Shown here: positions 11,845-20,590 of the stretch, in pieces
Layout of the letters: every line of letters begins with the position of its first letter
Position numbering within the stretch: the stretch's first letter is position 1
DNA from: a virus
Lineage: Duplodnaviria > Caudoviricetes
Direction: 5' to 3' (one strand)
Length of the DNA: 64,000 nucleotides
IMG/VR virus record: IMGVR_UViG_3300005077_000001
Coordinates: 1 to 64,000 of that record
Translations under genes and position numbers: made by a program
The notes under the pieces: generated by a model
What the model saw: the letters and a program-made list of their open reading frames with translations, nothing else
Told to the model about the DNA's origin: nothing
Databases searched by the model: none

Positions 11845-11991
11845 ATGACTAGAGCGTTTATCGGATGCCTTTTGGCATTGGTTGTTTGGTTCAAAGGGAA
11901 GTGGGCTTGGGATTGGATGAACAGTACTGCCCAAGCAATTCAAGAGGAATATGATTTCAAATTCCCTTGGCAAAAAAAGAAAAAGGCTTAA
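11845..11991 (+). CDS. Small membrane peptide (48 aa)
   Basis: GGAGG RBS; MTRAFIGCLLALVVWFKG. Confidence 0.6.
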   Translation: MTRAFIGCLLALVVWFKGKWAWDWMNSTAQAIQEEYDFKFPWQKKKKA

Positions 11992-12756: not shown

Positions 12757-12901
12757 ACACGTTGTTTAATGTAGGTTTGCACATGGAAACCGCGAGAACG
12801 GTTTTCTTTTTATTATAATATTATATTCTTAATATATTTAATGATGTATAGGATAACGTGTATGCGTTAGTCCTGTAAAGACTTTACAAAAGGAGACAGT
12901 C

Positions 12902-17427: not shown

Positions 17428-17556
17428 TGGGTATGGTCACGGATCTAAATGGGTGTCTCAAAGGAAGAGGCACCAGTGATAGGATAACGTGGCTAATAAT
17501 CTGCTGCCACACTGTCTAAGGTCAGAGACCTGGCAGATACTCTGGCACCATACCCA
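17428..17556 (+). ncRNA. Candidate multi-stem ncRNA (129 nt)
   Basis: Closing helix TGGGTATGGT/ACCATACCCA enclosing three hairpins; GC island within AT-rich DNA. Confidence 0.6.
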
Positions 17557-17969: not shown

Positions 17970-18611
17970 ATGAAGGAAAAGAGAATATTTACTAGTAGGT
18001 TAAAATATATAAAGGTAAAGGAATTTATTTTATGCGGATTTGATGTGATTGAGTTATGTGATTATTTTCATATTTATAATAACAAAAGAACAAATTTCAT
18101 TAGCTTTAGTAATAAGATATTACACTTTGATAAAGAATTTAATAATTGTGATGTTTGTGATAAAAAACTTCCCTCTACTTGTTTTGATATAGATAAAAAA
18201 ACAAATATATTAAAAACCATTTGTAAATTATGCTTATTTAAACAGCAAGTAATCACTCAAAATTATAAACTAAGAACTAAAGCACAGTTACTTAAAGAAA
18301 AGGCAATTCAATATAAAGGAGGAAAATGTGAACTTTGTGACTGTAAAACACAGATACTGTCTTCTTATGATTTCCATCATTTAAATCCTTCAGAAAAAGA
18401 TTTTAATATATCTACTGCTTTAGCACAAACTAATGACTTAGAAAAAATAAAACCTGAATTAGATAAATGTATACTACTATGTGGTAATTGTCATAGGTTT
18501 ATTCATTCTATTGAATATGAGAACTTATTAGTTGGAGCAATGAATCAATCAATTAAAATAACACCTTCTAAGAAACAATTCAAAAAGTTATTAAGTAAAT
18601 CTTTACAATAA
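17970..18611 (+). CDS. Zn-binding HNH-type endonuclease
   Basis: GGKCELC, YDFHH..PSEKDF, ELDKCILLCGNCHRFIH. Confidence 0.85.
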   Translation: MKEKRIFTSRLKYIKVKEFILCGFDVIELCDYFHIYNNKRTNFISFSNKILHFDKEFNNCDVCDKKLPSTCFDIDKKTNILKTICKLCLFKQQVITQNYKLRTKAQLLKEKAIQYKGGKCELCDCKTQILSSYDFHHLNPSEKDFNISTALAQTNDLEKIKPELDKCILLCGNCHRFIHSIEYENLLVGAMNQSIKITPSKKQFKKLLSKSLQ

Positions 18612-18863: not shown

Positions 18864-19126
18864 GCGGTTTTCTTTACCCACACATATTTATATATTTAAT
18901 AATTTATAGAATATCATTTATGTGTGTGCCCATAAGAACACCATACGACAGGACTTGCTGAATCATTCCCAAGACGCAAGCCGATAAGTGAACGGAGGAT
19001 AAGAAGATGTTTCTCCTCGTTGTCCTGAGCATGACATAAAAAGGCTCATTTCTTTCTTTATTTATTTCTTTATTTAAATGTACCACCCTTGGTACATTCC
19101 TTCCCCTTGATATATTTAATGTATTA

Positions 19127-19310
19127 TGGGTTATCTTTGACGGGCTGAGTGGGGGATAACGGCGACGTCTTTATTGCCTTGCCCTTCCTCGTTTGCCGGG
19201 CCGCTTAGATAACCCACGGAAAAAGGAGGCAAGCCAAAACTGGGTATAAGGCCACGAGTCTCCTGCGAGTTTATCCTGTTCTCGCTTTATGCTCTAATAA
19301 CAGGGACCCA
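19127..19310 (+). ncRNA. Candidate pseudoknotted ncRNA
   Basis: TGGGTTATCT/AGATAACCCA helix starts at the promoter motif; GCGAG/CTCGC loop CCTGTT is complementary to AACAGG 19299-19304. Confidence 0.6.
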
Positions 19311-19457
19311 AAGAAATCAATAAAAAAAAGTTTGAGTGGGATGAACAATGGAGAAATCGCTGAGCACATTAGCGGTTTTTTCATACACGCGTATAATAAT
19401 ATATTTAATGTTGTATAGAGATGTGTTAGCATCTTAATGAAGAAAGGAGGAAATCAC

Positions 19458-19739: not shown

Positions 19740-20081
19740 CCTCGACGCCCCGTGGTCTTCATTCAATTAGCCGCTTGTTCCCCTCCCAAGCGGTTTTCTT
19801 TTATACGTACATATATGGGAATTTATTTTTATATATTTAATGTTGTATAGGATTAGGGGTTATAAGGAAAAGGGAGGGCAGTCATGGTTGAAATCAAAGT
19901 GAATGGCGTGATTTATCGCATCGTAAGGCGATAGACTGCCAATGCATATCGGCACTAAGAGCCAAAAAATAGTTATTGAAACCGTGCTTTAGCGGTTTCT
20001 TTATTCACGTGTATGTATTTATATATTTAACGTATTATAGGGATGGATTTATTCATCTCAATCTTTGATGGAGGTTGGGCA

Positions 20082-20192
20082 ATGATCTGGAATATCTTAG
20101 GCACTCTTTTCAAAATAATTACCACAATGGTGTTGGGGGTGATAGTAGTCATTGCAGGAAACACCCTGTACGATAACATTAAAAACAAATAG
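20082..20192 (+). CDS. Small membrane peptide (36 aa)
   Basis: GGAGG RBS; MIWNILGTLFKIITTMVLGVIVVIAGNTLYDNIKNK. Confidence 0.6.
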   Translation: MIWNILGTLFKIITTMVLGVIVVIAGNTLYDNIKNK

Positions 20193-20443: not shown

Positions 20444-20590
20444 ATGGATCGTCCTTGGTATATCAGTCTTCTCATCTCCCTCGGAGTAGCCCTCGGCGGA
20501 GGGTTGATCGGATACTTGGCCCACAGCCTGTTTCCTTGGCACAGGGGATGGAGCCGGAACAACAAAGGCTCCATCCATTCCCAGAAGTAG
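20444..20590 (+). CDS. Small membrane peptide (48 aa)
   Basis: GGAGGT RBS; MDRPWYISLLISLGVALGGGLIGYLAHSLF...; GC hairpin downstream. Confidence 0.65.
   Translation: MDRPWYISLLISLGVALGGGLIGYLAHSLFPWHRGWSRNNKGSIHSQK

Follow-up and report, generated by a model that had tools for sequence, protein, structure and literature searches.

A candidate stand-alone structured RNA gene of no known family in the early cassette array of a phage genome

The stretch of DNA analyzed here (the window) covers positions 1-64,000 in the 256,335-bp record of an uncultured phage, whose GC content is 33%, and carries four tRNAs and a tmRNA in its 6-11 kb region. The motif TATATTTAATG-N5-TAG occurs in about 17 plus-strand copies between 3.5 and 20.4 kb, and behind every copy lies a short unit closed off by a GCGG hairpin and its U tract. 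We take this promoter motif to be real because look-alike arrays are present in two related phages, at 176-192 kb in G001 and at 436-463 kb in G003. In each of the 14 protein-coding cassettes, an ATG follows the Shine-Dalgarno (SD) sequence at a distance of 5-10 nt. In Thermus phage P23-45, AT-rich pre-early promoters have been proposed as the targets of the tail-fused virion polymerase gp96 (PMC10770324); by analogy, the cassette promoters are probably read by this phage's own virion RNA polymerase, and a DFDGD polymerase motif is found at residue 1994 of its 12,315-residue tail protein.

Several cassettes (19885-19935, 20082-20192, 20444-20590, and 11845-11991) encode peptides of 16-48 residues with a good SD; three of these peptides are hydrophobic, and three were compared with Pfam with no significant match. 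An HNH endonuclease gene (PHROG 2255) lies at 17970-18611, 0.5 kb upstream of the RNA studied here, with no sign of a link to it. The ORF that follows the unit has its own promoter and is without a Pfam, PHROG, or sequence match. Outside the window, at 141704-142927 of the phage genome, there is a 407-aa ORF with an N-terminal PLMP-type motif, possibly an IscB. The unit that begins at 19127 contains the following features.

19111-19129, plus strand: cassette promoter, TATATTTAATG-N5-TRG.
19128, plus strand: putative transcription start, the purine past the conserved T, from the register of the motif.
19127-19136, plus strand: 5' strand of helix P1 (9 bp if transcription starts at 19128).
19137-19206, plus strand: inside of domain 1, with irregular stems that can pair in several nearly equivalent registers, for example 19147-52/19201-06 and 19161-65/19174-78.
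19174-19189, plus strand: 5' strand of pseudoknot 1, including the anti-SD-like CCUUCCU; marginal.
19207-19216, plus strand: 3' strand of P1, pairing with 19127-36.
19217-19240, plus strand: A-rich linker with AAGGAGG (19223-29) and no ATG behind it; duplex with the anti-SD, -11.8 kcal/mol.
19224-19264, plus strand: predicted hairpin Ha (19224-30/19258-64), pair probability 0.92-0.98.
19240-19323, plus strand: CTG-opened 27-codon frame, probably untranslated, with an SD 11 nt ahead.
19241-19310, plus strand: domain 2, with the same UGGGU/ACCCA ends as domain 1; borderline similarity.
19242-52/19284-94, plus strand: alternative 11-bp helix Hd with four G-U pairs, duplex energy -12.4 kcal/mol.
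19265-19305, plus strand: predicted H-type pseudoknot 2, with stem S1 at 19265-69/19281-85 and stem S2 at 19274-80/19299-305.
19311-19350, plus strand: A-rich tail, mostly unpaired (unpaired probability 0.82 for 19311-29).
19351-19381, plus strand: terminator-like hairpin of the GCGG-U-tract type common to the cassettes, z -2.6.

A first-pass annotation of this DNA had described a two-domain pseudoknotted RNA beginning directly at the promoter motif, and the position of the motif fits such a start: TATATTTAATG at 19111-21 is followed by TATTA and then by TGG, and the predicted start is G19128. At the 15343 site, the SD begins immediately past the conserved T, and transcription should therefore start within about two bases of this T. 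Since this register is joined by a base after the T that is nearly always a purine and by 5' hairpins that, at several sites, begin at that very base, transcription of the 19127 unit probably starts at G19128. A sigma-70 promoter reading was rejected as its start register does not fit. The transcript probably ends at the terminator near 19381, a hairpin that a simple terminator scan did not list, while another terminator at 19026-55 bounds the unit on its upstream side. A start at 19128 and an end at the 19351-81 hairpin would give a primary transcript of about 255 nt, which exceeds the earlier span of 19127-19310. The GC content of the unit is 52% versus 33% for the genome, a level reached by 0.2% of genome windows and 3% of early-region windows.

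All of the pairings listed in the first-pass annotation are present where it placed them, as read directly from the sequence, and their statistical support ranges from strong for P1, through moderate for the 3' pseudoknot (p 0.014-0.18), to marginal for the 5' one. P1 has 10 Watson-Crick pairs with a pair probability of about 1.0 (0.72 for the terminal pair). A perfect helix of at least 10 bp anchored at the start was seen in 0/3000 shuffles, and in 12/600 shuffles if it could lie anywhere. The domain that P1 closes, 19127-216, folds with a z of -3.0 to -3.4; within it, pair probabilities for 19148-19196 are mostly 0.3-0.55. The whole element taken as a nested fold is not unusually stable (z -0.36). 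Closing helices at the start are also found in the 14892 unit (7 bp) and the 17428 unit (10 bp), and several mRNA leaders in the array and in the relatives start with short hairpins. For example, a G003 leader begins with the same UGGGUUAU, which there pairs locally into a hairpin, with an SD and ATG downstream. Taken over the 18 promoter sites together, this is a modest effect, with a mean pairing of 0.51 compared to 0.40 in shuffled sequences. Because start-site helices also head mRNA leaders, P1 reads as a 5'-end protection and not as a catalytic feature; for the same reason, P1 alone is no proof of a non-coding gene.

The first-pass annotation had paired the interior of domain 1 with the linker downstream. 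In this pseudoknot 1, CTTGCC (19178-83) pairs with GGCAAG (19228-33) and TCCT (19186-89) with AGGA (19224-27); the two blocks are separated by a 2-nt bulge that the annotation left out, and 3 bp are gained beyond a C-C mismatch (19174-76/19235-37). It was matched by 131/3000 shuffles using the annotation's own pattern and by 571/2000 using the best duplex energy (p 0.04-0.29), and 19191-97 is an alternative partner that is nearly as good. The annotation had missed two strong competing helices, 19224-30/19258-64 (Ha) and 19242-52/19284-94 (Hd). Ha buries the AGGAGG and is mutually exclusive with pseudoknot 1, which alone costs 3-5 kcal/mol against Ha; from these energies, it is doubtful that pseudoknot 1 forms.

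For pseudoknot 2, GCGAG (19265-69) pairs with CTCGC (19281-85), and CCTGTT (19275-80) with AACAGG (19299-304), where U19274-G19305 extends the second stem to 7 bp. The geometry is an S1 of 5 bp, a U-rich loop 1 of 4 nt, an S2 of 7 bp, no loop 2, and a loop 3 of 13 nt. A compact, perfect 5+6-bp pseudoknot occurred in 41/3000 shuffles of the element (1.4%) and in 42/1393 real genome windows (3%), while 72/400 shuffles reached pseudoknot 2 when it was scored by energy with G-U pairs (p 0.18); the p values for the pairings are optimistic, as the patterns were fitted after the sequence was seen. Hd competes with S1, and folds using Hd are 4-5 kcal/mol worse. When each pseudoknot is charged a rough penalty of 7-9.6 kcal/mol, folding with pseudoknot 2 comes to -58.8 to -61.4 kcal/mol versus -59.3 kcal/mol for the nested minimum, and the first-pass annotation's full double-pseudoknot model to -60.7 to -55.5 kcal/mol. 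Pseudoknot 2 has about an even chance of forming, and the double-pseudoknot model is possible, though it is not the lowest-energy fold and is not favored.

Domain 2 alone, as a nested fold, is no stabler than its shuffles (z -0.4 to +0.5). The two halves of the element share their ends and some inner words; most scoring schemes give a p of about 0.02-0.2 and some show no likeness, the domain boundaries for this comparison having been picked after the fact. Domain 2 is thus possibly a diverged duplicate of domain 1 that arose by an old duplication. Tandem Repeats Finder detected no array in the element.

The first-pass statement that the element holds no ORF stands for ATG, GTG, and TTG starts, save for a 4-codon ATG frame at 19126, but the 27-codon CTG frame does have a strong SD before it. 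This SD (19222-29) lies 7 nt past P1 and equals the real cassette sites in strength, and CTG is the sole plausible start codon behind it.

blastn of phages and plasmids revealed no homologue of the 19127 element; pattern searches of IMG/VR gave chance matches only or none, a metagenome pattern search gave none, and the GTDB genomes gave one chance match. Nor was a homologue found in five related phage records (terminase 35-53% identical) by DNA and covariance-model searches, where the model (R2) was built from a single sequence and so has a short reach, in the early regions of related phages searched with filters off (best E 0.19), or at the loci of the neighboring proteins. Eight of these proteins are single-member clusters, and the closest relative, with a terminase 75% identical, is represented by a 7.4-kb contig lacking the 19127 region. 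With no homologue, there is therefore no covariation for either pseudoknot.

Other ORF-less promoter units of the same array fold strongly (17428, z -4.6; 14892, z -3.6), and in G001 the same type of promoter precedes two ORF-less units that also fold strongly (z -5.6 and -6.7), neither of which has detectable sequence similarity to the 19127 element. RNA cargo in the cassettes is a recurrent trait of this phage group, which raises the odds of the 19127 unit being a real RNA gene and is uninformative on its fold.

Among these units, 17428-17556 is a 129-nt multi-arm element closed by the start-anchored helix, and it shares the UGGGU/ACCCA ends and GGAUAACG with the 19127 RNA. A family made up of domain 1, domain 2, and the 17428 element (UGGGU, ACG, ACCCA) was considered and not adopted, as the pairwise p values of 0.08-0.32 are suggestive and not significant; the three showed no convincing common fold, and no further members were found. 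The promoter-to-terminator unit at 18907-19055 can form a three-way junction (nested z about 0) and hides the GGAGG and ATG of a 10-codon frame in its own hairpin. Its likeness to the 19127 element (p 0.019 in about 25 comparisons) was lost after correction. The octamer GGATAACG is found at 12851, 17482, and 19154, so that three of its four genomic plus-strand copies are in early transcripts, a pattern noticed post hoc. In G001, the unit at G001:C1:188510-188900 (plus strand) is an ORF-free stretch of about 390 nt with a cassette promoter ahead, a z of -6.7, and no match in Rfam; over its first 18 nt it is similar to the start of the 14892 RNA, and the likeness ends there. The ORF-less unit at G001:C1:187068-187400 (plus strand) has an 8-bp start-anchored helix, an inner hairpin, and then a terminator-like stem holding CCUCCU, the z of -5.6 applying to its first 74 nt. 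It loosely resembles the 19127 layout in having a start-closed domain of about 75 nt whose inner loop could pair just downstream. Also in G001, a sequence of about 200 nt occurs twice, inverted and 190 kb apart (G001:C1:21046-21325 and 211683-211890).

We consider it reasonably probable that this gene-free stretch of about 250 bases is a stand-alone, pre-early non-coding RNA gene of no known family, because it has its own promoter and terminators, a start-anchored helix, a GC island, and no SD-spaced ATG. The first-pass proposal of a separately transcribed structured RNA is supported by the promoter register, P1, the terminator, the GC content, and the absence of a canonical ORF. An early array with folded RNAs in several protein slots, here and in at least one relative, yields a short list of candidates, of which the 19127 element is one orphan whose fold is predicted and which has neither a family nor an assigned function.

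It is unlikely, although to be taken seriously, that the unit is instead a decayed cassette, in which the promoter, helix, SD, and terminator are remnants of a small protein gene whose start codon was lost and the pseudoknots arose by chance. A start-site helix, a short A-rich spacer, and AGGAGG are the usual order of an mRNA leader here and in the relatives, the early genes of this phage are GC-rich, the energy-scored pseudoknot p values climb to 0.18-0.29, and the element is missing from every relative searched. However, the 90-nt closed domain far exceeds the 15-45-nt leader hairpins, the rarity of the perfect 5+6-bp pseudoknot in shuffles argues against chance, the promoter and terminator are close to consensus, and no recognizable protein remnant was found in Pfam or Atlas.

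The strong SD could also serve an mRNA for a CUG-started 27-residue peptide (19240-19320), type I toxin-like and with the SD gated by pseudoknot 1 and Ha, both of which cover it. The stop codon is 28 nt ahead of the terminator, and the neighbors code for similarly short peptides of 16-48 residues. This reading is improbable, since ATG is used in every other cassette, the 11-nt spacing is outside their 5-10 nt range, the SD has an unpaired probability of 0.02, the hydrophobic run is merely about 11 residues, and the product had no match in Pfam or Atlas.

About as improbable is a small RNA directed at translation, in which the AGGAGG binds the 30S subunit as a sponge or a stability roadblock, for which the SP82 polypurine stabilizer is the model, or in which CU-rich segments pair with host ribosome-binding sites. 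A full-strength SD without a start codon and the segments CCUUCCU (19183-89) and CUCCU (19260-64) are what this would call for, and an RNA stabilized by ribosome binding without translation has been described (PMC7509114). Yet the predictions leave the SD and the anti-SD-like segments largely base-paired (unpaired probability 0.02 and 0.25), chance alone would supply about one such pentamer per 250 nt, and complementarity to other phage sequence is 12-13 nt at the longest.

The first-pass suggestion of a small ribozyme found no support, as Rfam at E <= 10 gave no family match save a chance microRNA hairpin, and the HDV, twister, pistol, hatchet, hammerhead, twister-sister, hairpin, and glmS patterns, searched with Rfam models and with our own descriptors and core patterns, were absent from the element. 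A self-cleaving ribozyme of an undescribed class, which the size and the potential of several helices to form interleaved, nested pseudoknots would suit, is very improbable, as the known cores and models all fail to fit, the unit has no tRNA, intron, or downstream ORF to release, and the promoter already supplies the 5' end.

Returning to the non-coding RNA gene, we propose that the cassette unit would be transcribed from G19128 to the hairpin near 19381, as the motif register suggests, and that P1 would bury the 5' end while the terminator guards the 3' end, giving, by the rules of mRNA stability, a long-lived RNA. The predicted fold is a P1-closed domain 1, followed by Ha stacked on the compact H-type pseudoknot, with A-rich single strands flanking. 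Such an RNA may act in trans during the earliest minutes of infection, and we tentatively suggest, by analogy, that it serves a host RNA-binding protein as a decoy or ligand. For example, it could bind an anti-phage ribonuclease and act like the pseudo-ToxI of phage PhiTE without being ToxI. RNA-based counter-defense by phages is known from few cases. More speculatively, and with a rather low probability, the cassettes of this phage group might express unrelated, fast-changing folded RNAs as a counter-defense arsenal, of which the element would be a two-unit, double-pseudoknotted decoy with a new fold, blocking an anti-phage protein of the host.

Among known systems, large bacterial SRP RNA was considered for a possible resemblance of the element to the SRP Alu domain, and rejected, as RF01854 gave no match, the S-domain motif is absent, and helix 4 cannot close. 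CRISPR-repeat, 6S, Y RNA, and tRNA-like readings were rejected as their defining helices or motifs are absent. Like the HDV-like/theta ribozymes (PMC10879173), the element is a small, possibly doubly pseudoknotted phage RNA, and it has a UUCCUCG-like stretch; in contrast to them, P3, P1.1, and the J4/2 catalytic C cannot be built here, the element is not tRNA-adjacent (the nearest tRNA is about 8 kb off), and the descriptor gave 0 matches on both strands. The helix order of domain 2 is pistol-like, but without P3 and the core. Proteo-phage-1 (RF03044), manA (RF01745), GOLLD, and ROOL resemble the element as stand-alone, ORF-less, folded phage RNAs of unknown function, manA being near it in length while GOLLD and ROOL are much bigger; none of these models matched in the element, and the element could not be built into a family of its own. 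The pre-early units of P23-45 (PMC10770324) are similar in having a repeated AT-rich motif just upstream of short early units and in belonging to a phage whose giant tail protein contains a polymerase motif, although the promoter motif differs; a term search of that paper turned up no "non-coding" cargo.

The pseudo-ToxI of PhiTE shows that a phage can use a pseudoknot RNA as a decoy (PMC3475682), and the element is comparable with ToxI, CptI, TenpI, and pseudo-ToxI (PMC3475682, PMC4627078, PMC13682666) in that an H-type pseudoknot with single-stranded, A-rich flanks is predicted for it, at p 0.014-0.18. TenpI can be two non-identical repeats, and the RNA here possibly consists of two diverged halves. 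In CptI and TenpI, loop 1 is a single nucleotide and the long loop is A-rich (PMC4627078, PMC13682666), whereas the element has 4-5 nt in loop 1 and a U-rich loop 3 with 3 A in 13 nt. Unlike the type III antitoxins, the element has no clear tandem repeats and no toxin gene after it; an RF02519 (ToxI) search gave no match at the 19127 locus, and there is no toxN-like gene after the terminator. Although the loop make-up and the toxin gene do not fit and the repeats do not clearly do so, the type III antitoxins provide the nearest working analogy for this RNA.
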